Made by a program: the position numbers and the translations under genes. The notes under the pieces are model-generated. The model saw nothing but the letters and a program-made list of their open reading frames with translations, did not search any database and was not told the origin of the DNA. A stretch of DNA of 60,021 nucleotides, taken from a virus (taxonomy: Duplodnaviria; Caudoviricetes). The stretch covers positions 1-60,021 of the IMG/VR virus record IMGVR_UViG_3300033829_000001. The stretch is one strand, 5' to 3'. Positions 7,752-50,518 of this stretch are shown piece after piece; within the stretch, counting starts at the first letter, position 1, and every line of letters begins with the position of its first letter.

Positions 7752-8269
7752 GGGTCCTCTACCTCGATCGGCAGTGATGCGAGGTGTGTCGTCTGGGCCG
7801 GCGCATCGACCCTGTTGGCTATAAAAGCGTCTAGAAGTGCCGCGGTCTCTTTGCGACTTAAAGGCTTGATCTCGGGCATCTGCGCCAGTAACTTCGCTCT
7901 AAAGTCGGCAATGAACGTAAGTATTTCGGTCCATTTCGCTTCGTCGGCATTTCCTGGCACCGCGAAGCAGTCAGTCATCTTGGTGTGGGTATTCGTAGCC
8001 CACAACAAGAATCTGTCCGCACGAGTCTGATACTGATGCTTTACACCCATTATATCCATTTTCATGGTGGCTGATGGCGGCACGGGCGGAGCGGGCTTAG
8101 ACGGGTCTTTAGGATATGGTACTAACCCAGCATATGGGGTGAATTCCATTCGCACTAAATCCGGATCTAGAACGACCATCATCAGTTCCTTGCTGTGCGT
8201 AACTACACACTGCGTTGAGTATAATGTACGTACACGCAGTGTCAAGTACAAAATACGCCGGCCATGCAT
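7748..8269 (-). CDS. Hypothetical protein
   Basis: AGGAG RBS upstream; 173 aa. Confidence 0.6.
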   Translation of the reverse strand: MHGRRILYLTLRVRTLYSTQCVVTHSKELMMVVLDPDLVRMEFTPYAGLVPYPKDPSKPAPPVPPSATMKMDIMGVKHQYQTRADRFLLWATNTHTKMTDCFAVPGNADEAKWTEILTFIADFRAKLLAQMPEIKPLSRKETAALLDAFIANRVDAPAQTTHLASLPIEVEDP

Positions 8270-8278
8270 TAATCTCCT

Positions 8279-8578
8279 CTATTGTTGTCTCGCCGCTTTC
8301 TCCGCATCAGCTGAACTATCGCCGTCATCGGCGGACCGCAAATGGACGTAGTACACCACGAGCCCGACGAGGGGGACCACCACGAGAGAAGTCATCGTGA
8401 TAACGAACGCGTTGAGCTTGTCCATGTGCTCGAACACCATATGGATCACATACTGCGTCTGCATCGCAGCCCATATTACCAAGCCGCGGCGGATGCCTTT
8501 GTGTTCATCCATCAGCGACAATAGAAATCCGAACGGCGATTTGAAAAATCCGGCTATCCAACTAAGAAATATATGCAT
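8279..8578 (-). CDS. Small membrane protein (holin-like, about 2 TM segments)
   Basis: Hydrophobic segments followed by a charged C-terminus. Confidence 0.6.
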   Translation of the reverse strand: MHIFLSWIAGFFKSPFGFLLSLMDEHKGIRRGLVIWAAMQTQYVIHMVFEHMDKLNAFVITMTSLVVVPLVGLVVYYVHLRSADDGDSSADAEKAARQQ

Positions 8579-8581
8579 AGC

Positions 8582-8860
8582 TCACCCCACAGGAATAGTC
8601 GCAGTTGTATTCGCCGCATTGTACGCGTTGATAGTCGCAGTATTGCTAGCCAGACCGGCCTGTATCGTCGCCAACGCACTCTGCTGGGCCGCCAATGTCG
8701 CCTGCGCCGTAGCTAGCGAAGAAGCAACATCCAGCGCTTGTATGCTGGCAATATTCGCCTGCGTCGCCGCGATCTGTGTATTGAGCTGGTTAATCTCGTT
8801 GTTACATAGATCTACAATATACGAAGCCGCTTGGGCCTGTGCTAAAGTTGGGGCTGACAT
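8582..8860 (-). CDS. Ala/Gln-rich coiled-coil protein immediately downstream of the fibre gene
   Basis: 92 aa with heptad repeats and no Lys/Arg. Confidence 0.7.
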   Translation of the reverse strand: MSAPTLAQAQAASYIVDLCNNEINQLNTQIAATQANIASIQALDVASSLATAQATLAAQQSALATIQAGLASNTATINAYNAANTTATIPVG

Positions 8861-8861
8861 A

Positions 8862-10691
8862 TTACTTTCTCCGAATTATGACGTAACCAGTGAGGAAAAA
8901 AGACCACAAGGCAAGAGCCGCGATTTCGTGTTGTTGATCCTGTATAGCTTTAGTCAATACGGCCGTCATTTGCATGTATCGCACGGTATGGACTTGACCG
9001 TCTTCTTCGAGAGTGACCAGTCGCGGATCTACGGCCTGGACTTCTTCCGCAACAAAACCAACCTGTTCGCCAGCATTGGTCAAATCCACGTTGCCATCTT
9101 CGTTCATGAAGTAACTAACCGGGTTCAGCGCCATGACTTCATCCAGCCCCGACTTAAACGCCAAGGGCTTGATGTCGTGCTTGAATCGGCGGGCTGAGAC
9201 CAAGCAGGTGCTCGACGGATCGTAGGTCAACGTGGACGAAGACCAGCATACGCTACCAGTCTGCGCAGCGGTGCTGGATGTCAGTGACGCCATGGCAATT
9301 GTGGTAGCGTTAGGAACGGTAAAAGTCGTCCCGTTGAACGTATCGACAGTGGAGCTAACGCTGAACGCATCTGTGTTGTTACTAAGGCACCAAGCAATGG
9401 TGCCGGTAGCCGTTAAATGAAAGCGAGCAGCAGTGGAACCACCGCAACTAGAGGTTCCCGATATACTAAGAGATGCATTAGAAGAAATTTGCCCAGTACT
9501 AGTAAGGGTACCCCCGAAAGTTGCTCCTCCGGATCCTAAAAACGTATATGTCGGATTGTTCGTGGTGTTGCCAAACGAGAGATTGGTGATGTTCGTGGTC
9601 GTGCCACGCGTTACGGTCATGGCGTTAAGGCCGGCCCCAAGAGCGTCAGTATATGTAGCCAAGCTCCATACACCGGAGTTAACGCATGTGCCCCACCAGC
9701 CTAGATTCGTGCCGGCGCCGGACTGATCCAAATAATCGCACGGTGCGGTCGCTACGACTTCATTGTAATTAGTGGCTTCTATAACCGTCCCAGTTACAGC
9801 GGCAGGCGTGGTGCCGCCGATCGCGGGCGGAGTCGCATAGTTCTGCGTCGCGAAAGTCCCCAGTCCAGTGACCTGCGTGCTAGGGATAGAGGCATTGGCA
9901 TCGAAATATGTCAGCAGCGCAGCAGGAGTCGTCTTCACATTAGCGCCGCTCTGCGTCATCGGTATGGACTCTGATCCTGTGATAGCCGATCCAGCCGACA
10001 ATGAACTGAACAACTCGAACGACGTCGCGCACGAGCCAGCAGAAGTCGTCACGGCGCCCGTCAGCGCAGGCAACTGAGAGCAGCTGAAGTTGGTCGCGGC
10101 AATAGTTGAGTTCACGAACGCATCGGTAGCCAGCTTAGTAGTATTGTCGGCAGTGGTCTGTGTAGTGGCCGTTGTGCCATTAGGCAACGCGGGGGTCCCG
10201 CTCAGGTTAGCCGCCGTGCCAGTAGTGTTCTGGTTCCACGTCGGAACTGTCCCGCCAAGCTGCGAGTACTGCACTTGCGCGCTGTTACAAGCTCCGCTCG
10301 CGGTTATACCCGTCGCATACTGCCCGGAAGTACACTGCGTGGGCGTCGCAGCCAGAGCAGTTGCCGTCGCAGCGTTGCCAGTGGTGTTCTGGTTAAGGGT
10401 CGGAAACGTCGCGTTCGCAAGGTTGATCGTAGGGCTACCGCTAATGGCGCCTGTGGATATACCTACAGTGAACGTCTGCAGAGCCGTCCATGAGTTAGCG
10501 CCGCCGAGCAACTGCGAACTGATATAAGACAGGATCTGCGCCGCGGTTAGTTTAACCGTCGTGCCTGACTGGTCGAATGGGGCGACCTCGGTCCCGGTCG
10601 GAGTGGAGCCCGCAGGCAGCGCTGTTATCGTAGTCTGTGCGAACGCCGTCACTGGGATCGCAGCTAGAAGGCCAAGCAGTATCTTTTTCAC
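8862..10691 (-). CDS. Fibre-like protein with signal peptide, C-terminal Peptidase_S74 intramolecular chaperone and TM anchor
   Basis: N-terminus MKKILLGLLAAIPVTAFA; fibre motifs (ITALPAG..GTEVAPFDQSGTTVK and a second copy; DNTTKLATDAFV); S74 motifs SARRFKHDI, GFVAEEV, VRY...LTKAIQ; C-terminus IAALALWSFFLTGYVII-RRK. Confidence 0.85.
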   Translation of the reverse strand: MKKILLGLLAAIPVTAFAQTTITALPAGSTPTGTEVAPFDQSGTTVKLTAAQILSYISSQLLGGANSWTALQTFTVGISTGAISGSPTINLANATFPTLNQNTTGNAATATALAATPTQCTSGQYATGITASGACNSAQVQYSQLGGTVPTWNQNTTGTAANLSGTPALPNGTTATTQTTADNTTKLATDAFVNSTIAATNFSCSQLPALTGAVTTSAGSCATSFELFSSLSAGSAITGSESIPMTQSGANVKTTPAALLTYFDANASIPSTQVTGLGTFATQNYATPPAIGGTTPAAVTGTVIEATNYNEVVATAPCDYLDQSGAGTNLGWWGTCVNSGVWSLATYTDALGAGLNAMTVTRGTTTNITNLSFGNTTNNPTYTFLGSGGATFGGTLTSTGQISSNASLSISGTSSCGGSTAARFHLTATGTIAWCLSNNTDAFSVSSTVDTFNGTTFTVPNATTIAMASLTSSTAAQTGSVCWSSSTLTYDPSSTCLVSARRFKHDIKPLAFKSGLDEVMALNPVSYFMNEDGNVDLTNAGEQVGFVAEEVQAVDPRLVTLEEDGQVHTVRYMQMTAVLTKAIQDQQHEIAALALWSFFLTGYVIIRRK

Positions 10692-10951
10692 TGGATAGTC
10701 CTCAAAGGCATACCACTAAGAGTAGTGATATTGATGCCCGTCAGGGTAGTTATATCATGCGAGCCGCCACTGGACGAACTGGAAGAGCTGCTGCCGAACG
10801 GCAGGGCGGTCGGGTTCATGAGTTTACCAACGCCGGCAATAGGACCGGCGACCGACGCCGTCAGAACCGGCGGGGCTTGTCCCGCAACTACGAACTTGCC
10901 CAACCCGATAAGCACTGTCACCGGGACAGTCAGCCGCAATAAGTTACGCAT
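10688..10951 (-). CDS. Small exported protein; the C-terminal ITTLTG-x2-ITTLSG repeat resembles fibre-adaptor tails
   Basis: Hydrophobic N-terminus, Ser linker, ATGA-coupled to the fibre gene. Confidence 0.65.
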   Translation of the reverse strand: MRNLLRLTVPVTVLIGLGKFVVAGQAPPVLTASVAGPIAGVGKLMNPTALPFGSSSSSSSSGGSHDITTLTGINITTLSGMPLRTIQ

Positions 10952-10955
10952 GGTG

Positions 10956-11315
10956 CTAACTATTGGAAATCACAGCGAGTTTATCGCCCGAGTTGACCGT
11001 GAAGTACTCCGGTACACCCGCATAGAACAGCGCACTGGTAGTCGTCGCAGTCGGATTCGTAGTGCCTATCTCAATCGACGCCGTAGCATCGCATACCACC
11101 CGTATAATATATGTGGCTGAATTGAACGCATTTGACTGAGTGCTGGTACCGGTTATAGCCACCGTCTGTTTAGCCACGGCGGGGACGGCCAGCGCGGTCT
11201 GGTATGTAACGTTCTTGTTGTACTGGTACTCTGTCACCCAGCAACTGGACGCGTGCGCTCCCGCCGAGCCCGCCAAGGCCGCAGCGGCGGCTAGAATTCG
11301 CATATAATTTTTCAT
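10956..11315 (-). CDS. Secreted beta-rich protein
   Basis: Signal peptide ending AHA; 2 Cys. Confidence 0.75.
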   Translation of the reverse strand: MKNYMRILAAAAALAGSAGAHASSCWVTEYQYNKNVTYQTALAVPAVAKQTVAITGTSTQSNAFNSATYIIRVVCDATASIEIGTTNPTATTTSALFYAGVPEYFTVNSGDKLAVISNS

Positions 11316-11318
11316 GGG

Positions 11319-11822
11319 TTAGTACCCGCTGCAGCTGAATTGGACAACGTCGCTCGTAGTCGCGATCGTGATTTTCAGCGTCGCAGCCGTGGTGCTCACC
11401 GGGGCTACGGTCTCACCGACCACGCCTGAAGTAATATCCACCACGAAGCACGCCCAGCCATGCGGGGCCGCAGGCAGTGTCAGGACGGCAGTGCTGGCAC
11501 CCGCGGTGCCCGTGCACAGGAAGCTGCCCGTGCGCGCGCCGCCAGTGAGGGTGCTGGTGGTAGCGCAAGCGCCGGTACCAGAGGCCACCACGAACGTCGC
11601 ACCAGTGTCCAACGCGCTGGCTGAGATCACGCCCGCGGCACTTACCGCCAGTCCGCTACCCAGGGGGCAGTCGAAACCGTAGGCAACGCCGCTCTGCGGG
11701 TTACACAGGACGCTGGTTGCATTCATCGGACCTACTTGCTGAGGACCAACCTGCCCGTCAGCCAGTACGGCACCAGAGAATAGAGTCGCGGCTACAAGAC
11801 AAGATTTCAAAAAATTTTTCAT
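11319..11822 (-). CDS. Secreted beta-rich protein, paralog of 48676-49092 and 47593-48651
   Basis: Signal peptide ending VLA; shared GG..G.F...GT / G(W/F).C...D(I/L)T / D....(F/Y).C..(Y/F) pattern. Confidence 0.8.
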   Translation of the reverse strand: MKNFLKSCLVAATLFSGAVLADGQVGPQQVGPMNATSVLCNPQSGVAYGFDCPLGSGLAVSAAGVISASALDTGATFVVASGTGACATTSTLTGGARTGSFLCTGTAGASTAVLTLPAAPHGWACFVVDITSGVVGETVAPVSTTAATLKITIATTSDVVQFSCSGY

Positions 11823-11849
11823 GGCGGCCTCGCAAAAATTAGTTGCGTG

Positions 11850-11878
11850 ATTCTAAAACGACGGGGGGATGTTGTCTA
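11850..11878 (-). promoter_or_regulatory. Sigma70-like promoter TAGACA-N17-TAGAAT for the secreted-protein/fibre cluster
   Basis: Near-consensus hexamers with 17-nt spacer just upstream of 11822. Confidence 0.6.
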
Positions 11879-11913
11879 TAGTAGAGCAGTCTGCGGGGAT
11901 TATATATGTATGT

Positions 11914-12501
11914 TTACTTTCTTCTGGAGAAAGTTCTGATGCGGTGGCAGTTCGCGCACACGAGATCGCACTTGCGCATCTCTGTAATGATCTTCTCTAA
12001 GCTGCTATTTAACATCCTAGAGATATCCCGATGCTTAGGACCGCGCTCTGGAACATGGTCAAATTCCATGGCATCAGGATGAAATTTACTGTGGCAGTCT
12101 TTGCATGGAGTGATCGCTTTATACCCACTGATAGCAGCTTTATTTCTGGCTACCTTAGCGGCCTGTTCGGCTCTCCTAGCTGCAATCCTTTCTTCTTGAG
12201 TGTATCGCAACACTTTCCTACGAGGTGGCTCGGTCAATGCCGTAGCTAGGTCCATCCCCCGCTGAAGCCTTTTTGTAATCGACGCTTCACTTATGCCTAT
12301 TCTCTTTGCATGCTCAGCGCGAGTCCCCGTGACGCCACCAGCAGTCAGTATCTCAACTGTATGCACGGGCGTCGTTGCTGCGCGGGCTCGGTCCCACTTT
12401 GCATTGAATACCCTGTTCTGCCAGCACGTATAAGTAATACCATGCGCTGCAGCAAGAGCTTTCCAACTCTTAAAAATTTTTCCATCGTACTCGATTTTCA
12501 T
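11914..12501 (-). CDS. HNH endonuclease with N-terminal repeated DNA-binding modules
   Basis: CKDC...EFDHV...CDLVCANCHRIRT. Confidence 0.85.
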   Translation of the reverse strand: MKIEYDGKIFKSWKALAAAHGITYTCWQNRVFNAKWDRARAATTPVHTVEILTAGGVTGTRAEHAKRIGISEASITKRLQRGMDLATALTEPPRRKVLRYTQEERIAARRAEQAAKVARNKAAISGYKAITPCKDCHSKFHPDAMEFDHVPERGPKHRDISRMLNSSLEKIITEMRKCDLVCANCHRIRTFSRRK

Positions 12502-12599
12502 ATGCGCCGGCCTTCAAAATTTATTATAGGCATACTGACATAGAAAATCATGTAAGTCAAGCGTGAGACAGATGAAGCCGATCGCCGCCCCCTACCCGT

Positions 12600-13050
12600 T
12601 GTCCAGCCCGCCATGCCCGCCCGGTGATAATACACACTAGTTAACATAATCATTCAGCAATCCCTATCAATGAGAGACATTGCAGCACTGTACCAAGTCT
12701 CTTAGGGTTCACGCTAGTTCACGCACAGTCGCGGGCTGGATGAGTTTGGCGCAACGCAGCGGGCTTCGAGCCTGTCGCGGGCTACGGGGGCAAGCCCCCC
12801 GTAACGCAAACGGACAACGATGTCCGAGCAAGCGTCTAGATAACCGCGTCATATTATGCGTAGACGGTAGCACCGAAATGGGTTCGCGGTTACTCCGCGA
12901 GTTATTGTCCCAGTTAGCTAGGCCCCTATTGACATTGTCAATAAAACGTGCTGTCACAGCCCGCGCAGTTAAAATTACCTGCGAGGATAGTGTGACTACC
13001 GGACCGTCTATCAACGGCGAAACCGAATCACTACCCGATAGGGCCTAGTC
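12600..13050. other. Hairpin-dense non-coding region (candidate ncRNA or cis-acting element)
   Basis: Stems include TACGGGGG/CCCCCGTA, CGGACA/TGTCCG, TAACCGCG/CGCGGTTA and CTAGGCCC/GGGCCTAG. Confidence 0.5.
12927..12943. promoter_or_regulatory. Perfect palindrome TATTGACA-T-TGTCAATA (candidate operator)
   Basis: 8-1-8 inverted repeat with TTGACA on both strands. Confidence 0.5.
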
Positions 13051-33719: not shown

Positions 33720-36133
33720 GTTTTTTCGAAAGAGTGCTTCCTACCGAAGGTAATTATTGTTTGATAAGCGGGGTCACTCGACCAGACGGAAAGCTCAGTG
33801 AAGTCCGACATTGGAATGGGTTCAAATCTACTGCCGATTTAGATAGAAAAGTACGACAACTTTCCCAGCAACCTTTGAACATCTTTTACGCCGTTGGATC
33901 ATACAACAGTGCTAACCGACAAGACCCAAGAGCAAAGCGATGTTTGTGGTTAGACTTAGACAGCAAAGATTTTGGAAGTATAGAAGAGTCGCTTAGGCAG
34001 CTTAGCGTTTTTATAAGATCTGTTGGGCTACCTGCGCCTAGTATGTATGTAGGAAGCGGGCATGGATTACATGTTTATTGGTGCCTAGACCGTGACGTGA
34101 CGTTAATCGAATGGCAGCCAGTGGCGGACGCGCTTAAAGCAAAATGTATCGAACTGAACTTTCCAGCTGATAAATCAGCCACTGCTGATCCCGCTAGAAT
34201 CCTTCGAGTCCCTGGAACTTTGAATAGGAAATATCCCCAACCAGCGCCGGTACGCTTACTAGCAGATAATGGATCATCGATTCAGCTCAATCAGCTTGCG
34301 AGCCAATTAGCAGTCATAACCGCCGGTGCTTCTTCAAAGCTTGCAGCCTTAGTAAAAAATGACGATCTAGTCACCAAGAAGGAATACCGTGAATACACTG
34401 CTGAGCAAGTCATTGCAATGCTCGAATGCATTGCCATCCCTGAGAACAACGGGCGTGAGGATTGGATCACTGTCCTATGCGCAGTGCAGGATTGGTCTCA
34501 TAAGTCCCTCGCCGCCTTCGAAATATTCCACGACTGGAGTGCGTCTCAACCGAAGTACATTAGCCGCGAAGATTGCTGGCGCACATGGTCGAGCTTTGAA
34601 CCGGGCGGGGGAATCAGCATCGGAACTTTGGTTAAATTGGCTAAGGACGCTGGATGGACCGAAAACAGCTCAGTGACGGCTGTACCGGACGCCATCAGCT
34701 TTTCTGAACAAATTGCCGCGGGAGTATCCAACAACGTCCCTATACCTGCGCCAACCGCACAGGTTATGCAACAAATCATAACATCGCCCCTTATGATCGC
34801 AGCGGCCCACGCAGTACGCGCAACGAATAGAGTTCGCTTCGATCCGAACGACGCAGTACAGTGGCTGAGCAACGAGATGGTAATGATCACAGACCAAGAC
34901 GGGCTATATTATTCAATGACCAACCGGCTACCTATGTCACGTACAGTGATTGACGATCTGCTTACGCGCTACATGCCGTTCAATGCGAGCGGCGTACCGA
35001 TCAACGCTAGCGCGCTACTGCGCCGCTATGGCACCGTCAACTCGGTAAACACGATTGGCTTCTATCCCGGAGCCGGCCCTATATATACCGAAGAAGGACG
35101 TACATACGTCAATCATTATATGAACCCGCCTGACATGCTGCCCGGTACGGCGAACGAAATTGCTTTGATCGAAAGCTTCTGGGACTACTGCTTTCCTCGC
35201 GAGGAGGATAAGGAATTCGGCGAGTACCTGAAACAATTCTACGGCCATGTCGTCCAGCATCCATCAGTAAAGATCGCTAGCGCGCCGCTCATGGTTTCCA
35301 AAGAGTTCGGGACCGGTAAGACCACGATGATGTTCGATATACCGCGTGCTATTGTAGGCACCCATAGTACAAAGCTCGTGTCTAACAAAGTCCTACGTTC
35401 AGCGTTCAGCGATTATTTGGCTGGCGCGCACTTCCTTCACTTCGATGAAGTGCATATAAACGGCAAATGGGACTCGGATGATACAGCCAACTCGATGAAG
35501 AACCTGATCACAGGCAAGACTGTCGAGATCCATCCCAAGGGTATGAAGCCTTATAATATTCCCAACCGCGTGTTCATCACTGCAACGAGTAATTATGAAG
35601 ATGCGATCACATTACCTACCGATGATGAAAGACGCTGGGGAGTTTATTACTTGCGACCTACCCTTATGTTGTCTACAAGTGCGAAAGAGTCATTCTTTGG
35701 CGTACTCCATAAATTTATCAACTCGCCGCGGGGTGCTTCGGTTCTACGGTGGTACTTTAGCAAAGTCGATCTCGCCGGTTTCGACCCACAGCGCGCTCCG
35801 CCAACTACGTCCGCTAAACGAGATATGATTGGCAAGTCACAATCATTGGACGTTCAAGTGATTCGAGACGCCCTGCAAGAAAGGTGTGGTCCGTTTGCGA
35901 AGGACGTGGGTACTCTTGATGCAGTTAAGATGTTCCTACATGCCGAAACTGGACGCGAATATCCTTCGGTTGCAACGCGCTATCTAATCCAGAAAGCAGT
36001 TCCGGGAGCAATAGCATTCGGTCAACAGCGCACTGCCGGTAGCACGCGGGTATCTATGTGGGCGTGGCGCAATCTTGATAAATGGTCGCAAGCTACTCCA
36101 CATGAAATAGCTAATGAAATCAAAAATCAGTAG
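33716..36133 (+). CDS. Primase-helicase (RepB-like AEP primase, PriCT-2, SF3/DUF5906-like ATPase)
   Basis: WLDLD, SGHGLHVYW, ILRVPGTLN; REDWITV..WS..KY..W.SF; GTGKTT, FDEV; GGAGG RBS. Confidence 0.9.
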   Translation: MSFFERVLPTEGNYCLISGVTRPDGKLSEVRHWNGFKSTADLDRKVRQLSQQPLNIFYAVGSYNSANRQDPRAKRCLWLDLDSKDFGSIEESLRQLSVFIRSVGLPAPSMYVGSGHGLHVYWCLDRDVTLIEWQPVADALKAKCIELNFPADKSATADPARILRVPGTLNRKYPQPAPVRLLADNGSSIQLNQLASQLAVITAGASSKLAALVKNDDLVTKKEYREYTAEQVIAMLECIAIPENNGREDWITVLCAVQDWSHKSLAAFEIFHDWSASQPKYISREDCWRTWSSFEPGGGISIGTLVKLAKDAGWTENSSVTAVPDAISFSEQIAAGVSNNVPIPAPTAQVMQQIITSPLMIAAAHAVRATNRVRFDPNDAVQWLSNEMVMITDQDGLYYSMTNRLPMSRTVIDDLLTRYMPFNASGVPINASALLRRYGTVNSVNTIGFYPGAGPIYTEEGRTYVNHYMNPPDMLPGTANEIALIESFWDYCFPREEDKEFGEYLKQFYGHVVQHPSVKIASAPLMVSKEFGTGKTTMMFDIPRAIVGTHSTKLVSNKVLRSAFSDYLAGAHFLHFDEVHINGKWDSDDTANSMKNLITGKTVEIHPKGMKPYNIPNRVFITATSNYEDAITLPTDDERRWGVYYLRPTLMLSTSAKESFFGVLHKFINSPRGASVLRWYFSKVDLAGFDPQRAPPTTSAKRDMIGKSQSLDVQVIRDALQERCGPFAKDVGTLDAVKMFLHAETGREYPSVATRYLIQKAVPGAIAFGQQRTAGSTRVSMWAWRNLDKWSQATPHEIANEIKNQ

Positions 36134-39100
36134 CCCGCGCAGTATCTGCGTCATTGGTTGCGCCCTGTTCGTCGAGCTGTTTGTCCCGAGTCATAGCTTG
36201 TATCTCCGAGGCTATTCCTGCCGAGCGTGCGGGGAAGCGTTGTATATAGGAATTCAACCGCTCCTCGGCCCGTACTCGCGAAGCCGCGTCGGGTGCTGAT
36301 ACATACGCTCTGATGATAGCTGTGCGGGCTGCTTTCTGGGCGGCTGCGTTTTCTACACGCACTTGGATCTTCTCCTGAGCCTCCGCTACTGAAGCCGGTT
36401 TAAAGCCTAGCGCCTGCGTTATCGCGTCTCCTGTTGACGGTGCAGTTTGCTGAGCGCCCAATGAATCAACTTTTCCCGCCGTCATCAAGCCAAACGCTTT
36501 CACTGCATCCTGATACATCTTCACAGGAATCACCGAGCTGATAGCTTGGAAGGGTTCGCCCTTTTGCATGTGACCTACGAAGCTCGATACATTGTTCGCT
36601 AGCATTTGTGGCATAGGGCCAGATGCTTCGAATATGGCGTTCTTCCACATGTCCTTGTCGGCTGAGAGTAAGTCGGGCGGATTGTGGAAGAAGAGATCCG
36701 CTAGACCCATCCGTGAGGAAACGTCGGCGCCAATCAAATGTGGCAAGCCATAAGCGGCGGTGTTCCCTGCCGTCTTGCCAAGGTGGTCTACCAACCACAT
36801 GTGAACGGCGTTCTTGAAATCCCATACCTCACCTTCTTGGTCGGCTATCTTATGGTAGGCATACATCGCCAGTTGCAGCGGCGCTAGCGCGGCGCCTCCG
36901 TACACACCCGCGAATAGCGCATTCCCCATCACTACTCCTGCAAGGGTCTTCGCGGCAACTGCTTTGTTCTCTCCTCTGAAAGATGCCACCAAGTTGCTAT
37001 ACACTAAGTGCGTCATTTCCTGTGCGTAAGTAGTGAACATCGTCAATGAGTTCATGCCCGGTATACGATTAACTTTCTTGAAGGCTAATGGCTTATTTTG
37101 CTGCGAGTAATCCGCATGAACCTCTTGCACAAAATCCGCCGTCTTGCGAACATCGCCGTTCGTTAGTTGTAACCCGGCAAGAGCTGTGGAAACACGATTG
37201 AAAGCATCAGCCATAGCAGGTACCAGTCTAGCCCACTCAAACACCCGGTCGGTTGTTGCGTTGTCACCCCGGGCAATCGATCCCAATTCATTCGCATACC
37301 CATGATCAATAACCCCTCTATCTATAAGTTGGCGCAGCGGACTGTTGTCTCCAGACGCCCATTTGCCCAAGGTCGGATGCTTTGCTACATACGCAATGAT
37401 CGCGTTGTGTATGTCCGAGCTGGTACCCCCCTTAGCAAAGACGTTTCGTACAGTTGCGCGCAACGCAGGCCCGATCACGCGCATGCCGCTACCGAACGCA
37501 ACAAGGGACTTGCCGTAACCGTACCGAGCGCCTGCTACTGGTATGCCCGTTGTAAAATTCTGGGTCATCCAGATTGCTGCATGCGACGGGGAAGCGAGAT
37601 ATCCCATGAATCCTAGCTTGGCTAGCATCGAGTTAAGCGGAGCCTTATGGCCGTAGTTCTGAACTTCATCGATCGCATGCTTGTTAAGTGCCTCGACTAC
37701 CTGCCCACGTCGGTACATGGCCCTCTGCGATACGTTATCCCGCGAGTCGCGCGCCATAGCCCGCACCCTCGCCATCGCGCGGGCCTGTTCGAAAACCGTA
37801 CGCATTTGCGCCGCATGCCACATAGTAGATGACGCGTGCTGCGCGAAATTCTGTCGCATGTCCTGCGCCTTCACTCCACCCACGCTCTTACGAGCCAACC
37901 GCGATCCCGCATATGCTGAGCGGGCTGCTGTCATTTGGAGGAAAGCAGATCGCAGACTAGCAACGAGAGCCTCAGTTCCTGCATCAGCTCCATTCTTTTG
38001 AATTTTTCGTTCTGCTTCCGAAACAAGCTCCTTGAGACCGTAGCTGAGAGGAGCCGATTCTCTTCCCATCGTTTTCTGAGTAACAAGTCCGGGCTCGAAG
38101 CCGGCGGCCACGAGACGAGCTTGCTCTGCCTCGGCATCCGCTCGTGTCTCATGCATAGATACGTACTTGACCTTATAGTCAACAACGTGCTTTCCTCCGC
38201 GTTCGCTAACCTCGGCCGTCGAATCAGGCGAAAGCTCTCGCGCGCGCTGGGCCCACTCGTTAGCCTTACCGACATCGTTGAACTCGCGGGTACCCTCTGG
38301 TCTCGCTGCGACAACATACTCACCCTGCCTTCCTAAGTGGAAATAGTCTCCCTCGATCTCTGACATGCCAGCGAAGTCCGATACCGCAGCTTTGAACTTG
38401 GCATTATCCTCGCCTACATCAATCGATTTCCCATCTCCGATGATTGAATCATATACTTCCGGATGTTTAGCACCGTAGAGCAATCCTTTCTGCGCTGGGT
38501 CCAAGTCCAGTCCCAGTGCGTCGATGGCTGTATCAATGCCTGCCTTACGCATTTCACGCATTTGCGCGCGATTGGCATCAGCTGCTCTATTATAAACATC
38601 GCGCGCTTCCGGACTCAACGCGTTATATCTAGCTTTGTACTGGTTATATCGAGTCTCGAATCCATCCCGTCCCTTGGCAATTGCAGGTTGGTCGTCCATA
38701 CCTTTGCGCATGTACATACGATACATCGTGGCATCCACCATCAACTGTGACATCTTGCGTTCATCGTCGCTCTTGAGCTTCGTCCATGCCTCAGCCACGG
38801 GTTTAGAGATCTGTCCCATGCGATTGATCAGCACGTTCTTCTTAATATCAGCTTCTTGTAATTCGCGGAGCGGGTTGCCTTCCTTGTCACCGCCGAAGTC
38901 CGTCATATGGTCACGGAAGATCTGTCCCACGGTTTTAAGGTTCGTAATTACTCGTCGCAGCGCATCGACCGATTTGCCCCCTACGACATGGCTGAATGCG
39001 CGCGCAGCTGCCGCTGGCTCGTCATCATCGGGAAAGATCTGCTTGAAACGAAACTCATCCGTGTCGCTCATTTCAGGCGCCGGATCGCGTAGTGCGCGTA

Positions 39101-42100
39101 GTCCCGGAGCGGCACGAGCCGCTTCTAGCGGTGTGACCGTCGTTGCTTCGCCGAGGGCTGCGCGGGCTACCTCGGGCAACGCGTTATGCACACCGATCGC
39201 ATTGGTACGATCGAAGATCGGATTGTTACGCCGCTGTGACTCCATCGCGTCTTGAACCGCTCCTACAATATGCTGTAATAGGTTCGGGTCTTTCATACCA
39301 AATATGCTACCGATCGCTTTGAAGACTTTGGTTAGCAGACTTTCTTTCACACTGCCTAGATTCTCACCGGGAAGAGCGAACGCTTCTGAGTCAGCGATCT
39401 CCTGTGCGAATTCCGGGTGCGTCAAAACTTCGGCCGCCATCTCGTGTGAATTGGTAATACCATACAGATGCCGCATAAAACCTTCAGGCTTCGGTACGGT
39501 GCCAGTGCGATCCTTGAAATACGCCTGATGCTCTTCGAGCACGTCAGCGCCATACTTGGACTCCAAACGCTTAATCAAAGCGTCATGCAACTGATCCATG
39601 CGCTTGGCAGCAGCACCGCCGGGGTTGGACTCCAGTTCATGCGTGGTGCCCGCGTGGATCATCTCGTGCACCAGCGCCTGTACGGTATAGGTAAAACCTG
39701 TCGGTCCTTTCAGCGTGTTCTCCAGATTGACCTGGATAGTGCGATTGCGGTTGGTGAACAAGCCGCCAGCCTTTTCACCAAAGCCGCGGCCGGTAAACAA
39801 GTTCTTAACCTCACTCATAGAATAGATCGGCGTATCCGGCAAGCGTTGTCGTATGCTGGTAAGAATATCCTGCAAATGCGGCGTCTGAGCATGTTCTATC
39901 ATCTTATTTAGTAACGCATGCGCACTGATGGGCGCGCCCGAATCAGTATGCATTCTCATGTAATTCAGATAGCCCGCACTCTCCATCGATTTGGCCATGC
40001 GGTCCCACTCATAGTTCAGCCGTGTATCCAATGCGCGTTGTTTGATGGCTTCTAGTTTGCCACCAAGAGTCGGACGGTACCCTTTGCTGAAGCCGGTCTC
40101 AGGCTGCTCGAACGTATGCTCTTCTTCCTCAAGAGTATCGGATATGCGCCCTGTGGGCTTCTCGGGCTTATTGCCTGCGCGCTCATCATCGAGAAATTTC
40201 AGTATCTGATCGATCTCACGTTTAGGACGGTTCAGATCATGTAGAGTTTGTTCAAACTGGTCGCGCAGTCGGCTCGCTTTGGCGGGATCTTCTTCGTTCA
40301 CGAACCGCGTCTTGAGTCCAAGCATGCGCGTTTGCTGTTGCTCAGTTAGATCCTTGGGCTTGATTTGATCTGCGTACTTCTCGTTGACTGGGACTTCAAT
40401 CAAGGGTCCGGCTTTCGTCTTCTCGGTCTTCGCAGCGATTTCTTGATATCTCGTTCGCTTGGCCGCGATCTTTTCCTTCAGCTCAGCGGCCTTCGCCCCC
40501 ACAGTGATTTCATCGCCGCGTCGGGCCACTCCGAGTATTCCGCGTGCAGCCTTGTGCATCTCAGCCACGAGAGCAGTGACCTTAGCGTGTCCAGTGCCCC
40601 TTCCTTTTGCAGTGTCCTCAGCCGACTTGTACGTGAGCCGTTCAGCGGCTGCCGCAGCCTTGGTTGCACGAGCGACGATGGCATCGTCCACAGTTCCATG
40701 TGCTGCCTGCGCGGCAGTTTTAAGGACCGACGCAAACGCTGAGGCGTTGTCTTGCCGCTCTCCAAGACTGGCCGCACGTGTCTGTCCATCGGGGATCTTC
40801 TCCTGGGCTTCGTGAGCCGCAAGCGCTTCTGCTAGTGCACCAGTTGCACCGGCTGCCTTTGGGGCTTTGCCCCGTTCGCCGCGTTTGCCCTCGGCTTTGC
40901 GCTGTGCCTTATCGGCCTGTAGCGCCTTCTCGGCTTCAGTTGTATCCTTGCCCAAGCCGCGGGAGAACTCAATGCCCTTGGCAGTTAGCCGTTCGCGGGC
41001 TCGCGCCAGCTGTGTGGCGACCTTAGCTTTATCGGTGCCCTGAACTTTGAACTCATCACCACTGATATGATAAGCATTACCACCGGTTTCTTCATGCAGT
41101 ATCTGAGCAGCGGTTCGGATCGCCTCATCGCCTGCCTCATGGCCCTTTGTATCGTTCAGATACTTAAAGTTGTCCAGATCGACATGCGCCTGCACCGGTA
41201 ACTTGTCGGACTCTTCGTAAGCACGACGGTTTTGAATGCCGGATACCTCGTTGGTCAGCAGCGTCTTACGCATCTGCTCGGGCGACATCTCGCTGATTTT
41301 TTGACGCTGAGCAGTATTGACGCGGCGCTCTTGCGTAGCCTCCGTAGATTCAGGTTCAGGTTTAGCGGGCTCGGGTGGATACTCTGTGCCAGTGCGCACT
41401 CTATCTTCGGGCACATCAATAGTATGGTCTGCAGCCTCGCCACTAGCGTCGATCGGACGCACGCGCACTTTGCCAGTGGGCGCACCTTCTTCAATATGCA
41501 CTGGCAGCTCTTTGCCAGAATCGCTCTTGAAAATGCCCATCGTAGGCTCGGGAGCAGCGGGCGGCGCGGGGGCCGGCTCGCTCTTCGCTAGCGGCTCTGG
41601 TGCTGGTTCCGCTCCTGCTCCCGGCTGCTGTTCTTTCGCTATCTCAGATTCGCGCCGCGCGAGCGCAGCCTCTGGCGTGGTTACCACTGGGGTCTTGCCC
41701 TGGTCTATAGCTTTCTGCGCTGCCTGTGGTACTTCGGAGGGCTTGACCGTAGTTTCAGTTGCAACTGCGCCATCTGGCGTATGTCCCTGTACGACTGCCG
41801 TCTGGTCAGCAGCCTTGCCTGGGCCGGCGCCAGTGACAGATCCAATCACGGCCTGCGGATCTTCGCCAGCGTCTAAGCGCTTCTGTACGGCTTCAGCACC
41901 AGCTTTGGTCTTGAGTACCAAAGTGCCGTTGTCCATGGCGACAGTGCGGCCTTGCTTAGTGGCATTGGATAGTGAGCTAGCAACAGACACGTGGTCAGCT
42001 GTTAGGCCCCCCATTGAGTTGTTGAGATTATCCGTTGATAAGAACACGCCGACGCGCGGTGTCTTAGGATCATTCATATCTCTGAACTGCGCACGAATAT

Positions 42101-43322: not shown

Positions 43323-43333
43323 GTTAGTTCCTT

Positions 43334-45925: not shown

Positions 45926-47136
45926 GGGTGAGCACTCACGTGCGGGGGATGAAACACGGGAATTGCACGTCGTTTATTCATCTGATTGCGGATACTATCT
46001 ACTTGTTTATGAAAGAATTCTTGCCCCTTAAAATCTACGACGTCTTTTGGCATCACCCACTCGCCAGGGGTGAGTAACGCTGGCTTGGTATCAGTCGAGC
46101 CCGGAATAGGCGAGCTGGGCAACGCACCGCGCGCAGTAACATTACCACCTTGACTCATAACTTCTCCGCCTGCGCAGTAGGCTGAAGAGATAGGCGGCCC
46201 GTTGCCGCTAGGCGCGGGTATGCCAGCGCGCTGGTGCGTCGCCCGCATACGCTTGCCCATCATAGGTATGCCCGGTAGAGGGCCGGGGACTCCCGCCCCG
46301 CCTGGAACAGGGCCGCCAGACTCCATCATAGCCATGCCGGCAATACCAGCTACTTGGCCAATGATCTGGCCGACACCGGCCTGCTGTTGCTGCTGGTCAG
46401 TGTAGACCTGCTGCTGCTCGCCAAACTGCGTATTGGCCGCCTGCACTGCGCTGTTGTTCGCATTGACGTCCGTGTTGAGATAAGAGTTGGCCGCAGTGAG
46501 GTTGTTCACGTTCGAAGCGTTGGTGCTGTTCACAGTATTCTGACCGGCCTGCGCTGTCTGCGCACCAGCTGCTTCGCCAGCCGTGCCCATCTGACCGACT
46601 TGCACGCCCAGTTGGTTCGCTTGGTTCTCCATACCAAACGCAGTCTGCTGTGTTTGGATCGCGCTCTGTGTACCGGCGTTGGCCGCATTGGCTGCGCCAG
46701 ATACAGCAGCCTGCTGCTGCATAGCAGCACCACCGAGCGACGCAGGATCGACACCCTCGGACGCGAGAGCGGCGCGCGAGTTAGCCAGCGCTGCCTGATC
46801 GGCCGCGTTGGCATTGCCTACCGCCTGTCCCTGCAGCAGCGCGACATTCTGCGAAGAGCCGTATTGCTGCGCGGCCTGCGCTTCGGTGCTCTGCAGCGGA
46901 TTGAAAACAGAACCATACTGCTGCAAATTCTGATTCGCGGTATTCGCAATAGCGCCCGCGGCGTTATTGCTTGCGTTTGTCACACCGGACAGGTTCGCCT
47001 GTGACTGCTGGTTAAGAGCAGTTGCAGTATTCATGGTCTGCGCGGCGTTGCTGGTCGCAGTCCCCGCCGTGTTGTTCGCGTTGGTTACGTTGCCGCTTAG
47101 ATTAGCTGCTTGGGGTGTACTAGCGCCGCCTGACAT
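45922..47136 (-). CDS. Internal virion (ejection) protein
   Basis: Ala/Gln/Asn-rich; C-terminal DTKPALLTPGEWVMP motif. Confidence 0.75.
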   Translation of the reverse strand: MSGGASTPQAANLSGNVTNANNTAGTATSNAAQTMNTATALNQQSQANLSGVTNASNNAAGAIANTANQNLQQYGSVFNPLQSTEAQAAQQYGSSQNVALLQGQAVGNANAADQAALANSRAALASEGVDPASLGGAAMQQQAAVSGAANAANAGTQSAIQTQQTAFGMENQANQLGVQVGQMGTAGEAAGAQTAQAGQNTVNSTNASNVNNLTAANSYLNTDVNANNSAVQAANTQFGEQQQVYTDQQQQQAGVGQIIGQVAGIAGMAMMESGGPVPGGAGVPGPLPGIPMMGKRMRATHQRAGIPAPSGNGPPISSAYCAGGEVMSQGGNVTARGALPSSPIPGSTDTKPALLTPGEWVMPKDVVDFKGQEFFHKQVDSIRNQMNKRRAIPVFHPPHVSAHP

Positions 47137-47552
47137 GCTCGATGCTCCGCTGGTATCCAGCGACAATCTTTTCGATCCAACGCGAAGAAGTGCAACGCAC
47201 CAGACGGGTGAGCGTCTTTGAGCACAGCGAATTCTTCAAATCCTAGGCGCTTAGCGAAGTTCAACGACTTAGCGTTGCCCGCTTGTATTATGCCAATAAG
47301 CTTCTGGTATTGCCACTGTATGAAAGGGACTTCAAACCCAGTCCTCAAAAGAACCCGATTGAACCCGGTCGGGGAGTCTGTGACGGCGTGTAATTGACAG
47401 GACAGGCCCTGAAAACTGTCGTATCCAAACGCCGCGATTATGACTCCGTCTACTTCGCGGGCGATGCCACGAAACTCTTTCTGTATGGGCATGCCTGAGC
47501 GGATATGCATCCACTGCTGGATTCTATCGTCAGTGTTAATCAGCCGGTCCAT
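47097..47552 (-). CDS. GNAT-like acetyltransferase preceding the ejection genes
   Basis: N..SL.F.KRLGF; position typical of podoviruses. Confidence 0.75.
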   Translation of the reverse strand: MDRLINTDDRIQQWMHIRSGMPIQKEFRGIAREVDGVIIAAFGYDSFQGLSCQLHAVTDSPTGFNRVLLRTGFEVPFIQWQYQKLIGIIQAGNAKSLNFAKRLGFEEFAVLKDAHPSGALHFFALDRKDCRWIPAEHRACQAALVHPKQLI

Positions 47553-47592: not shown

Positions 47593-48651
47593 CTAGAACG
47601 CAGTGCATTTATAGGTGATCAGATCGCCCGAAGTAGGCGTTCCGACAATGGACACCAGAGTCGTAGTATACGCTGATTCTTTGAGAGTGTTGGCGGATGT
47701 CGTTAAATCCTTGAATGTGCACACAAACCCGTTCAACACTGCCACGGGGTAGGTGAACAGAAGCGCGCCAACCGCCGTAGATCCAGTCGCTGTAACCGTG
47801 TTGCCGATCAGCGTTACAGCGCCGTTAAGTGCAAACACGTGACCAGTTACCGAGGCGCCGTTTCCGAGGCTATCTGAGATAGCTGCGATCACGGTGCCGT
47901 TGACGACCGAAGAGGCGTTTATAGTCGCGCTCGAACCGACAAGCCAGTAGACGTTCTGTGCCTGAGCGCCGTTGGTCAGCGATACAGTGCTCGACGTATT
48001 AGCGGTAAACGTGCTGCCGATCTGGAAGATGAAGACCGCATTTGGATTGCCACCGCCGTTCAGAGTGACAGTCCCGCCGACCGAGATATCCGCGCTTGAG
48101 CCGATTTTATACAGGCCCGGGCTAAGCGTTGTCCCAGCTAGCTCGTATGAAGATGCCGATAGAACTGTGGCACCGGGGAGAGCGTTCCCGGTATTGAACG
48201 CCGTTGTCGCGTCCGTTACTGCCTGCGCCGCCGCGCTGTTGGTGATGTTTGAGGTGCCTGTGACAGTCGGCGAGCCGGTAACTGATGTGCCGGGATAGAG
48301 GGCCAGATTGCCTGTTATAGTCGTAGTGCCAGTATTCGTGATCGTCGAAGTCGCGATCACACCATAAGTGACTGCGGTACCTAGGAGGATGCCCGATGAC
48401 GGAGCAGTCCCGCTGACTACAAAAGAGCCGGCGTTAGCGCCTCCAACCTGAGCGGAGATAGTCTGACCAGCGGCGGTAATGACCGGCTTATTCAGACTCA
48501 GGTCATTAAATTGACCCTGTAGCCCGGTCTGGCCTGTGAGCGGGTTGAAGTCATAATACGGGACAAAGGTCGCCGCCATGGCAGCACTAGTCAAAGCAGT
48601 GCCGAGAACCAGCGATGCAATGTTTGTCTTGAAACTCTTGAAAAACTTCAT
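47593..48651 (-). CDS. Secreted protein with an inserted DUF3494 ice-binding-like domain
   Basis: Signal peptide ending AMA; STITNTG.T.ITGN.ALYPG, L.PGLY, TLNGGGNPNAVFIFQI, V.LTNGAQAQNVYWLVG.SAT, GHVFA..GAVTL. Confidence 0.9.
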   Translation of the reverse strand: MKFFKSFKTNIASLVLGTALTSAAMAATFVPYYDFNPLTGQTGLQGQFNDLSLNKPVITAAGQTISAQVGGANAGSFVVSGTAPSSGILLGTAVTYGVIATSTITNTGTTTITGNLALYPGTSVTGSPTVTGTSNITNSAAAQAVTDATTAFNTGNALPGATVLSASSYELAGTTLSPGLYKIGSSADISVGGTVTLNGGGNPNAVFIFQIGSTFTANTSSTVSLTNGAQAQNVYWLVGSSATINASSVVNGTVIAAISDSLGNGASVTGHVFALNGAVTLIGNTVTATGSTAVGALLFTYPVAVLNGFVCTFKDLTTSANTLKESAYTTTLVSIVGTPTSGDLITYKCTAF

Positions 48652-48954
48652 ATTCAGTACCTTATAGGTTAGAGATCAAAACGCAACGCATTCGTATACC
48701 AGAAGATCGCCAGACACAATCGTTCCAGCAAACGTGACAGTAGTAGTCGTGTATGCCACTTCCTTCGAACTGTCGGCTGTAGTCGTAATATCAACTAAAG
48801 AACATGCAAAACCGGTAAGGACCGGCTGCGGATAAGTGAACGTAAAGGCACCAGTGGTCGTGCCTGTAGCAACGAACGCACCAGCAACGGCGCCTCCAAC
48901 CTGAGCGGAGATAGTCTGACCAGCGGCGGTAATGACCGGCTTATTCAGACTCAG
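48437..48954. repeat. 65-bp exact direct repeat (48437-48501 and 48890-48954) shared by the tandem paralogs
   Basis: Encodes LSLNKPVITAAGQTISAQVGGA in both genes. Confidence 0.9.
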
Positions 48955-49092
48955 ATCGACAAACTGCCCTGGTAGGCCATTGATGCCCGTGAGCGGGTTG
49001 AAGCCGATGTAGGGAATATACACAGCAGCAAGCGCGGCGCCAGTTACGAACAGGGCTGCGAGGGCTGCGCCAAACTTGCGAGAAGTCTTCAT
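48676..49092 (-). CDS. Secreted beta-rich protein; paralog of 47593-48651 lacking the insert
   Basis: Signal peptide ending ALA; collinear N- and C-terminal similarity; 2 Cys. Confidence 0.85.
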   Translation of the reverse strand: MKTSRKFGAALAALFVTGAALAAVYIPYIGFNPLTGINGLPGQFVDLSLNKPVITAAGQTISAQVGGAVAGAFVATGTTTGAFTFTYPQPVLTGFACSLVDITTTADSSKEVAYTTTTVTFAGTIVSGDLLVYECVAF

Positions 49093-49164: not shown

Positions 49165-49343
49165 CCTCGCCCCCGTGGACGCATAAAGTTAGGCCGGAGC
49201 TGCGGAGCCGCAAAGTGTCGCCCGCGATCTGCATTCACAAATTCCCGGGCTACTGTGGGAGATGGCCCTTTGCCGCTGCGAGGCTTGCCCCCGTGAGCAA
49301 TCAATTCCATAAACCTGTGCTGCTTTCCTGATTTACTTGGCAT
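49161..49343 (-). CDS. Small basic hypothetical protein
   Basis: MPSKSGKQHRFM...VAREFVNAD. Confidence 0.7.
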   Translation of the reverse strand: MPSKSGKQHRFMELIAHGGKPRSGKGPSPTVAREFVNADRGRHFAAPQLRPNFMRPRGRG

Positions 49344-50351: not shown

Positions 50352-50518
50352 TCTCCGAATCTCTTAATCGCCCAAGTAGTGATCGATATCGTACCAGCAA
50401 TTATGGCTATGATACCAGCGCACACTTGGATAATTGGCAAAATTTGTAGGCAAAACGCTGTCACAGCAGATGGTACAGCGACCCAAGCAGCGATGTGAAT
50501 GGTGTTGTGTGAATCCAT
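50348..50518 (-). CDS. Putative holin (56 aa; below the ORF-track cutoff)
   Basis: MDSHNTIHIAAWVAVPSAVTAFCLQILPIIQVCAGIIAIIAGTISITTWAIKRFGE; ATGA overlap with the endolysin. Confidence 0.7.
   Translation of the reverse strand: MDSHNTIHIAAWVAVPSAVTAFCLQILPIIQVCAGIIAIIAGTISITTWAIKRFGE

Follow-up and report, generated by a model that had tools for sequence, protein, structure and literature searches.

A cluster of predicted Sec-exported fibre-type proteins in the genome of a podovirus-like tailed phage

In the textbook account, tailed phages are assembled wholly in the cytoplasm, and some of their products, such as Spackle (Sp) and Imm of T4 and Llp of T5, act in the periplasm as phage exclusion proteins. 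In filamentous phages, a receptor-binding virion protein, pIII, carries a Sec leader and a C-terminal inner-membrane anchor and acquires its disulfides in the periplasm before joining the particle. Here we analyse the IMG/VR virus record IMGVR_UViG_3300033829_000001, the entire 60,021 bp of which is referred to below as the window (CheckV completeness 100). This genome of a podovirus-like tailed phage contains, within positions 8,582-11,878 on the minus strand, four consecutive genes with signal-peptide-like starts, one of which encodes a 609-residue tail fibre with a Peptidase_S74 chaperone. Comparison of these genes with their relatives brings out predicted Sec leaders, conservation of these leaders, enrichment in cysteine (Cys), and an S74 domain followed by a putative membrane helix.

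Among described systems, K1F endosialidase and T5 pb1 are fibres or spikes with an S74 chaperone, and phages G7C, CBA120 and K1-5/SP6 build branched receptor-binding complexes in which extra spikes are docked on an adaptor or on another spike. A membrane-bound relative of the chaperone is found in MYRF, a eukaryotic transcription factor released by a phage-tailspike-like ICA domain, as set out in PMC3742443 and PMC3742440. The gIII leader of filamentous-phage pIII is mentioned in PMC9402515, a cleavable leader of the T4 antiholin RI in PMC8385771, and Lys44 as a secreted endolysin in PMC6116005. Literature searches, covering mostly open full texts and few subscription journals, returned only secreted endolysins, T4 RI, lipoprotein exclusion factors and mentions in methods, and no Sec-exported tail fibres of tailed phages, in agreement with an earlier, preliminary description of this DNA that knew of no equivalent system.

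Leader-bearing fibre genes and their conservation

All open reading frames (ORFs) listed in the preliminary description are present. Its claim of four consecutive genes with signal-peptide-like starts stood for the genes of 167, 119 and 609 amino acids (aa), which have textbook Sec leaders (MKNFLKSCLVAATLFSGAVLA before DGQ, MKNYMRILAAAAALAGSAGAHA before SS and MKKILLGLLAAIPVTAFA before QTT, respectively), and only partly for the 87-aa gene, the start of which is weaker and atypical. GAGG or GAGGA lies ~7 nt before the starts of the 167-aa and fibre genes, and the fibre start overlaps the stop of the preceding 87-aa gene as GTGA. A Sec leader was defined by a basic n-region, a hydrophobic h-region and a small-x-small cleavage site within ~35 residues, and was called with our own rule-based script for the n/h/c and AXA pattern, in a strict and a loose version, with whole-protein shuffles as the control. 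The strict version flagged 6 of the 75 window ORFs (shuffles: mean 1.2, maximum 5), namely the four cluster genes, 48676-49092 and the FN3 gene read from ATG 16048; the loose version flagged 8 of 75, adding 47593-48651 and one doubtful ORF. Thus, the further leaders that had been claimed are recovered, that of 47593-48651 by the loose script only, and the fibre at 52870-53886 lacks a signal peptide, as had been stated.

Homologs of the 167- and 119-aa proteins mostly retain the leader, so the condition under which the preliminary description would have been refuted, a majority of homologs without leaders, does not overturn it. The leader is flagged in 21 of 24 homologs of the 167-aa protein, the unflagged ones being P0065, which is N-terminally partial, P0078, whose start is leader-like but has an Asp in the n-region, and P0076, which has no leader, and in 19 of the 30 members of the 119-aa family, where it is also probable in P0037 and absent from 10. 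Homologs that are only 45-60% identical still show the n/h/c and AXA pattern. The leaderless members of the 119-aa family open with MATLYVTEF, at the point where the mature leader-bearing forms start.

The same register is seen in the fibre. A phmmer search with its mature N-domain, for which 1.84 billion representatives were read, yielded 24 hits, 11 of them matching other parts. In 6 hits, a leader directly precedes the motif T.I..LPAG....GTE..P.DQ.G.TVK.T.AQI; in the other 7, the motif begins at residues 2-6, without a leader. When 10 leader-bearing and 8 leaderless N-domains were aligned, Met1 of the leaderless forms fell exactly at the predicted cleavage site. The leaderless relatives include P0015 (pectate-lyase-type tailspike) and P0016 (K1-lyase-type), which are ordinary virion receptor-binding proteins. 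This pattern supports the view that the leaders are conserved add-ons to fibre-type domains. The N-domain is constant while the C-terminal part is exchanged (P0001 versus P0002). Among proteins of cultured phages, the fibre matched 13 records, all by the S74 end only, and the N-domain gave one weak hit.

The fibre chain does not end with the chaperone: it has a leader in front and a hydrophobic helix with Arg-Arg-Lys (RRK) behind. The PF13884 match (residues 499-559) scores 48.1 bits against a cutoff of 22 (E 1.4e-12), and the phmmer alignment to the structure 6f45 in the PDB places S499-ARRF-K504 on S-DRRI-K (SARRFKHDIK versus SDRRIKKDIK), with the catalytic Ser and Lys five residues apart. 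The combination of leader, S74 domain and membrane helix recurs in P0002 of locus L114 and in L008, and leader-bearing P0020 has the S74 domain without the helix; the helix is found in none of 9 leaderless S74 proteins (L005, L053, L077, P0003 and L115-L119), a small sample of ~6 distinct sequences. Under the positive-inside rule, a basic tail is expected on the cytoplasmic side. Given the leader, the fibre is therefore predicted to be a membrane protein with a periplasmic body and the basic tail inside, and a topology of S74 domain, C-terminal helix and RRK would be sensible only after export.

Leader-bearing genes of this type cluster in other genomes. L114 has the trio of a 119-aa homolog, a small peptide and a leader-bearing S74 fibre, and L084 the pair of a 119-aa homolog and a leader-bearing fibre; both cassettes lie just upstream of the large terminase gene, in genomes that are otherwise different. 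L055 encodes leader-bearing proteins of 595 and 1,806 aa interspersed with head and tail genes. In G001 (62.7 kb, 100% complete), a siphovirus-type genome, the head-tail adaptor and the tape-measure gene are separated by a row of genes for five large Cys-rich proteins, of which at least three carry leaders. G004 (40.3 kb, 97% complete) follows the gene order of T7; here, the internal virion proteins are followed by a leaderless 294-aa protein, which matches tail-fibre families (profiles of 648-1084 positions) over their first ~130 residues only, and then by three leader-bearing proteins of 731, 360 and 419 aa. The pattern is present in at least three complete or near-complete unrelated phage genomes; outside the window, G001 and G004 have such clusters in or beside their morphogenesis genes. 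Unrelated metagenomic podo- and siphovirus genomes thus share the leader trait. The large terminase of the window had no match in five related records. A Pfam scan of ten leader-bearing neighbours in G001, G004 and L084 detected no enzyme domain, only LVIVD and Gly_rich_2. The closest relative of the window phage, the fragment L083, keeps the leader-bearing 167-aa gene and a holin-like gene.

Cysteines, knob proteins and fibre companions

The mature Cys counts of the preliminary description are exact: 10 in the fibre, 6 in the 167-aa protein, 2 in the 119-aa protein, 0 in the 87-aa protein and 2 each in 47593-48651, 48676-49092 and the FN3 protein. So is its assignment of five local pairs in the fibre (120/135, 204/221, 318/336, 416/435 and 482/496), with spacings of 14-19 and inter-pair gaps of 47-97 residues. 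For comparison, 80 fibre-related IMG/VR loci were reduced, by removal of 9 5'-truncated and 24 duplicate ones, to 47 fibres, 11 leader-bearing (about one in five) and 36 leaderless; L076 and L071, which are doubtful or Cys-poor, are counted among the 11. Median Cys content is 1.73% in leader-bearing versus 0.17% in leaderless fibres, an approximately ten-fold difference (Mann-Whitney p=2e-4), and a Cys pair within the N-domain occurs in 4 leader-bearing forms versus 0 of 8 leaderless ones.

Within the window, three consecutive virion-type proteins of 2,400, 863 and 414 aa (36120-47166, minus strand) contain 0, 0 and 1 Cys; the portal has 1 Cys in 804 residues and the major capsid protein 1 in 362. 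By these counts, the virion parts built in the cytoplasm are nearly Cys-free and the putatively exported ones Cys-rich. The canonical 338-aa fibre, which has no leader, has 2 Cys, 176 residues apart.

The C-domain of the 167-aa protein was modelled by AlphaFold2 (AF2) as an 8-strand beta-sandwich (predicted local distance difference test, pLDDT, ~90). Within the family, C86, C103 and C125 are invariant, the last Cys lies in a conserved FGC.GY-type motif, and the mature Cys count is even in 20 of 21 leader-bearing members. One homolog, P0079, fuses a leader and the fibre N-domain to the C-terminal domain of this family, which suggests that the domain is a fibre tip. In the Atlas, viral proteins carry the C-domain at their C-terminal end, among them a cluster of pectate-lyase-type proteins of ~933 aa, and its nearest clusters are 81-100% viral. 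A fold search of the model against PDB gave no match at E<=1e-3; the weaker rows, lactococcin 972, reovirus and adenovirus fibre heads and the TP901-1 receptor-binding protein (E 0.05-0.5), are leads only. Directly after the Ala of the predicted cleavage site, P0061-63, 67, 70, 71, 75 and 78 continue with DLGVG and the window protein with DGQVGPQQVGP.

The second leader-bearing pair belongs to the same group. Residues 60-138 of the 138-aa protein align with the C-domain of the 167-aa family by hhalign (probability 89%, E 2.3e-6), with the Cys97/Cys135 pair falling on C125/C164; a scan of viral contigs with the 138-aa protein found nothing. The 352-aa protein is 64% identical to the 138-aa protein over the N-terminal 78 aa and 56% identical over the C-terminal 52 aa, and between these parts matches PF11999 with 160.7 bits against a cutoff of 28.7. 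It is not an IBP_CFB protein in the sense of the NCBIfam equivalog, because it scores 63 bits against a cutoff of 400. A leader is found in none of 19 IMG/VR viral relatives of its Ice_binding-like domain. As the 138-aa protein and, through it, the 352-aa protein carry the 167-aa C-domain, the phage would export three knob proteins and one S74 fibre.

The AF2 model of the 119-aa protein (pLDDT 86.6) gave no match at E<=1e-3 in the PDB fold search and 12 matches at that threshold in BFVD, all to small phage proteins without a function name. In the window, L084 and L114, its gene immediately precedes that of a leader-bearing fibre. A 122-aa protein of Rhizobium phage RHph_TM3_14A, considered as a leaderless homolog, was dropped after negative BLASTP and hhalign comparisons. 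In two loci (L085, 5550-5855; L086, 3927-4232), the gene of a leaderless 101-aa member of the family lies immediately upstream of the large terminase gene, and no fibre is encoded close by, so the family has a role independent of export and of an adjacent fibre. The leader-bearing members P0026 (window), P0029 and P0047 have a Cys at mature position 3 together with the Cys of 'CDA' and have lost the near-invariant Cys of 'ICS', which looks like a lineage-specific disulfide. The 87-aa protein has a homolog at the equivalent position in L114 (45% identity over 78 aa).

Genome setting

The window codes for a large terminase, portal, major capsid protein, canonical tail fibre, endolysin, DNA polymerase, helicase and primase, as well as for very large Cys-free virion proteins; no tRNA genes were found in its 60,021 bp. 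The closest cultured phages are Rhizobium phages of the RHph_TM3_14A type (portal 43% identical across 76% of its length). A nucleotide search of positions 8000-13000 against cultured phages gave 0 matches. A scan of 185,579 species genomes with the profile of the 167-aa family returned no relative and so pointed to no host; the sole hint is the homolog P0065, the NCBI name of which is that of a Terriglobia (Acidobacteriota) metagenome-assembled genome.

The late genes run on the minus strand from ~12,500 to 122 and then from the end of the record to 36,120. The leader cluster is near the start of this stretch, preceded by an HNH endonuclease gene and followed by genes of a holin-like membrane protein and the terminase; the second leader-bearing pair adjoins the endolysin gene (Table 1). 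There are two lysis-like spots in the window, 8279-8578 and 49333-50518, both on the minus strand. The latter adjoins the second pair and groups, in one cassette, a 56-aa membrane protein, an endolysin (phrog_315) and a 168-aa protein that has a membrane segment at its N-terminus. The 99-aa holin-like protein, 53% identical to its counterpart in L083, matched no family in Pfam, PHROG and NCBIfam scans, and the 92-aa protein encoded after the fibre matched none save for one sub-threshold Pfam hit and has no homolog in the loci examined. The preliminary description had given the cluster a sigma70 promoter of its own. The hexamers are there, but the region contains 6 such sites versus 7.5 +/- 2.6 in shuffles, a count not above chance, and the site is therefore not evidence of a promoter.

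Table 1. Positions of the leader-bearing genes, the parts of the fibre and neighbouring features in the window
Feature	Position	Strand	Description
99-aa membrane protein	8279..8578	-	charged C-terminus; holin-like by eye; flanks cluster
92-aa protein	8582..8860	-	leaderless, Ala/Gln-rich, probably coiled-coil; downstream of fibre
609-aa fibre	8862..10691	-	leader 1-18 (10638-10691); N-domain 19-75 (10467-10637); phrog_1980 tail fiber
C-terminal membrane helix and RRK of fibre (predicted)	8874-8924, tail to 8865	-	hydrophobic helix ~590-606
Peptidase_S74 chaperone of fibre	8916-9197	-	PF13884; from Ser499
Predicted released fibre	9198-10637	-	residues 19-498; five local Cys pairs
87-aa protein	10688..10951	-	hydrophobic N-terminus, Ser-rich linker, conserved C-terminus ITTL..INITTLSG.PLRTIQ
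119-aa putatively exported protein	10956..11315	-	small beta-sandwich; leader 1-22 (11250-11315); partner gene of leader-bearing fibres
167-aa putatively exported 'knob' protein	11319..11822	-	leader 1-21 (11760-11822); low-confidence linker; C-domain residues 75-167 (11322-11600)
Promoter-like hexamers TAGACA-17-TAGAAT	11850..11878	-	upstream of cluster; scan motif only
HNH endonuclease gene	11914-12501	-	phrog_3106, E 6e-23; just upstream of cluster
FN3-domain protein, 134 aa	16048..16452	+	leader MKRLVGLAVMLAVGSAEA before Q; fn3, 25.3 bits vs cutoff 25
Transposase-like gene, 414 aa	16499-17743	+	phrog_506, E 1.3e-59; early region, directly 3' of leader-bearing FN3 gene
352-aa putatively exported protein	47593..48651	-	leader 1-26; Ice_binding-like beta-solenoid 98-287 (47791-48360); knob-type C-terminus with Cys pair
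138-aa putatively exported knob protein	48676..49092	-	leader 1-22; paralog of 352-aa gene
Canonical leaderless tail fibre, 338 aa	52870..53886	-	tail module; phrog_8469 tail fiber, E 7.7e-31
Cys-rich ORF, 190 aa	56604-57176	-	adjoins major capsid gene; starts MKKCSACKIEKP

Proposed pathway, alternatives and comparison with described systems

We propose that the cluster is a cassette of tail-fibre-type proteins that would pass through the Sec translocon of the host and mature in the periplasm. Each protein would have a cleavable N-terminal leader, removal of which would expose an N-terminus equal to Met1 of the leaderless relatives. The C-terminal helix would anchor the 609-aa fibre in the inner membrane, with RRK in the cytoplasm and the body in the periplasm, where the membrane-proximal Peptidase_S74 chaperone might bring three tethered chains into register. 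The fibre would then fold, with its five local Cys pairs open to oxidation, and the Ser499/Lys504 dyad would cut, freeing a fibre of ~480 residues (19-498) into the periplasm and leaving the chaperone in the membrane. The 167-, 138- and 352-aa proteins would be exported knobs with a common Cys-clasped C-terminal beta-sandwich, and the 119-aa protein and 87-aa peptide conserved companions of the fibre. The preferred destination is the virion: the matured fibres and knobs may remain in the periplasm until holin and endolysin merge the compartments, and then dock onto finished particles, where they would be accessory receptor-binding parts in addition to the canonical leaderless fibre. The sequence comparisons give good support to export and periplasmic maturation, which we judge quite probable. 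The whole chain, from export through self-cleavage and disulfide formation to docking at lysis, has in our estimate slightly less than an even chance. By extension, some tailed phages may have a second, periplasmic arm of virion morphogenesis, in which Sec-exported, oxidised distal fibres and knobs are snapped onto particles at lysis and S74 fibres are assembled on the inner membrane and cut loose; this we offer tentatively, as an idea that may well prove wrong. In T7-type phages like G004, the short cytoplasmic fibre stub would be the socket.

Several observations weigh against this pathway, the first group of them concerning export. The leader predictor is crude: its loose version also flags 5 of the 89 proteins of the nearest cultured (Rhizobium) phage, so the raw number of leaders in the window is not striking; the striking features are leader quality, adjacency and conservation. 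The public gene call for 11319-11822 (P0056) begins at Met33, omitting the leader; the FN3 gene may start at ATG 16048 or at an upstream GTG, 15979, neither with a clear ribosome-binding site; and the 87-aa leader is atypical, with a Lys within the h-region and a homolog in L114 that has a hydrophobic start without a charged n-region. These false positives and ambiguous starts, and the established cytoplasmic origin of tailed-phage fibres, would fit proteins whose hydrophobic N-termini are not used for export, that is, ordinary cytoplasmic virion fibres whose N-terminal helix serves some other purpose or whose genes in fact begin at downstream start codons. Such a reading is improbable in view of the leader pattern retained among diverged homologs, the ribosome-binding sites ahead of the upstream starts, the cleavage sites in register with leaderless Met1, the ten-fold Cys enrichment, and a C-terminal helix and basic tail that would be senseless in a cytoplasmic fibre. 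As for disulfides, the majority of leader-bearing 119-aa proteins have only one Cys when mature, the family also occurs leaderless and fibre-free (L085/L086), and Cys parity was rejected as a discriminator of fibres, being even in 7 of 8 leader-bearing versus 11 of 16 leaderless ones with more than one Cys. Because of the single Cys and the uninformative parity, disulfides do not appear to be the general reason for export. On this point the evidence runs against the preliminary description, the reading of which is supported in part by leader conservation, the Cys-rich leader-bearing fibres, the even counts in the 167-aa family and the membrane anchor behind the S74 domain. The proteins could also be host-derived cargo, secreted adhesin-like products that are of use to the host or without function in the lytic cycle. 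Bacterial surfaces often carry secreted proteins of Ice_binding-like, FN3 and fibre-like type, the NCBIfam scan gave weak matches to bacterial families, and the FN3 gene adjoins the transposase-like gene. We regard this as very improbable, since no integrase-type function turned up among the part of the window ORFs that was scanned, the 167-aa profile has no relative among the species genomes, its nearest Atlas clusters are predominantly viral, and the cassette is conserved next to the terminase gene in different phage genomes.

On the destination, the contrary points are the following. The particles of this phage are expected to form in the cytoplasm because terminase, portal and major capsid protein are encoded, so docking would be confined to the seconds after lysis; we know of no precedent for periplasmic fibres docking at that stage, and the literature searches gave none. 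A canonical leaderless fibre is already present. The cluster lies outside the tail module and beside the holin-like gene, with the second pair beside the endolysin, which would suit a role in the envelope or in lysis too. L083 lacks the fibre, 119-aa and 87-aa genes, and the fibre is thus dispensable. The exported proteins might then never join virions but act on the envelope of the infected cell, binding or masking receptors or nascent polysaccharide or remodelling or decorating the surface, and could in this way block superinfection and keep progeny from sticking to debris. Besides the gene neighbourhood, the accessory nature of the fibre cassette, the canonical fibre and the compartment barrier between the periplasm and virions built in the cytoplasm, this role has in its favour that known periplasmic proteins of phages serve exclusion or lysis control and that a receptor mask would need receptor-binding modules. 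This main alternative is nevertheless the less likely one, though to be taken seriously: a PADLOC scan of 9 proteins gave 0 matches, PHROG, Pfam and NCBIfam scans found no named exclusion family, a free periplasmic protein has no obvious need for the retained tailspike-type N-domain, the genes lie within morphogenesis operons and, in G004, at the position of the fibre, and most receptors face outward, away from the periplasm. All domains are of virion fibre or spike type. We therefore lean towards docking onto virions at lysis, on the strength of these virion-type modules, the retained tailspike N-domain, the swapped C-terminal parts and the location of the genes in morphogenesis operons. A complex prediction with three copies each of residues 150-338 of the canonical fibre and 19-110 of the leader-bearing fibre returned 'no answer' (score 0.02), which speaks neither for nor against binding.

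If maturation of receptor-binding parts is indeed periplasmic, phages gain disulfide chemistry, and perhaps other periplasmic modification, for their environment-facing parts, and Sec, signal peptidase and Dsb would be host determinants of phage infectivity and host range. If the proteins act on the envelope instead, they would represent a new class of phage tools derived from receptor-binding modules. Gene callers and annotators that trim or ignore leaders would misread such genes, as exemplified by the public call from Met33.

Compared with described systems, the window fibre resembles the distal subunit of the long tail fibre of Salmonella phage S16 (6f45) in being a repetitive fibre that carries the S74 domain C-terminally, with a Ser-x4-Lys dyad, and the expected effect is likewise folding of a trimer followed by self-cleavage. 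Known S74 fibres, however, are leaderless and cytoplasmic and end with the chaperone, whereas the window fibre has a Sec leader, five local Cys pairs and a helix with RRK behind the chaperone. The branched complexes of G7C, CBA120 and K1-5/SP6 likewise combine several receptor-binding proteins with short conserved N-terminal domains and swapped C-terminal parts, but their partners are all cytoplasmic and assembled before lysis, and docking in the window phage is a proposal. T4 RI, Lys44, Spackle/Imm and Llp are, like the window proteins, tailed-phage products that use host Sec and act outside the cytoplasm; however, they are small regulators, lysins and exclusion factors, none of them derives from fibre, tailspike or S74 modules, and the Pfam, PHROG, NCBIfam and PADLOC scans of the window proteins gave no sequence match to them. 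With pIII, the window fibre has in common the leader, the C-terminal anchor and the proposed periplasmic maturation, but filamentous phages extrude through the membrane, whereas release by self-cleavage is proposed here, and there is no sequence similarity. MYRF has the same arrangement of cargo, S74/ICA domain and membrane helix, with the N-terminal trimer freed by trimerisation-dependent self-cleavage. In MYRF, a DNA-binding domain is the cargo and faces the cytoplasm at the endoplasmic reticulum, whereas the cargo of the window protein is a fibre, which, because of the leader, would be on the periplasmic side; Pfam detects no Ndt80-type DNA-binding domain in the window fibre, and the likeness is drawn on the S74 domain. 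By this analogy, MYRF appears to be the closest known mechanism to a membrane-tethered S74 fibre, and, whether the released fibre is destined for the virion or for the envelope, such a fibre would be a viral counterpart of the MYRF release mechanism.

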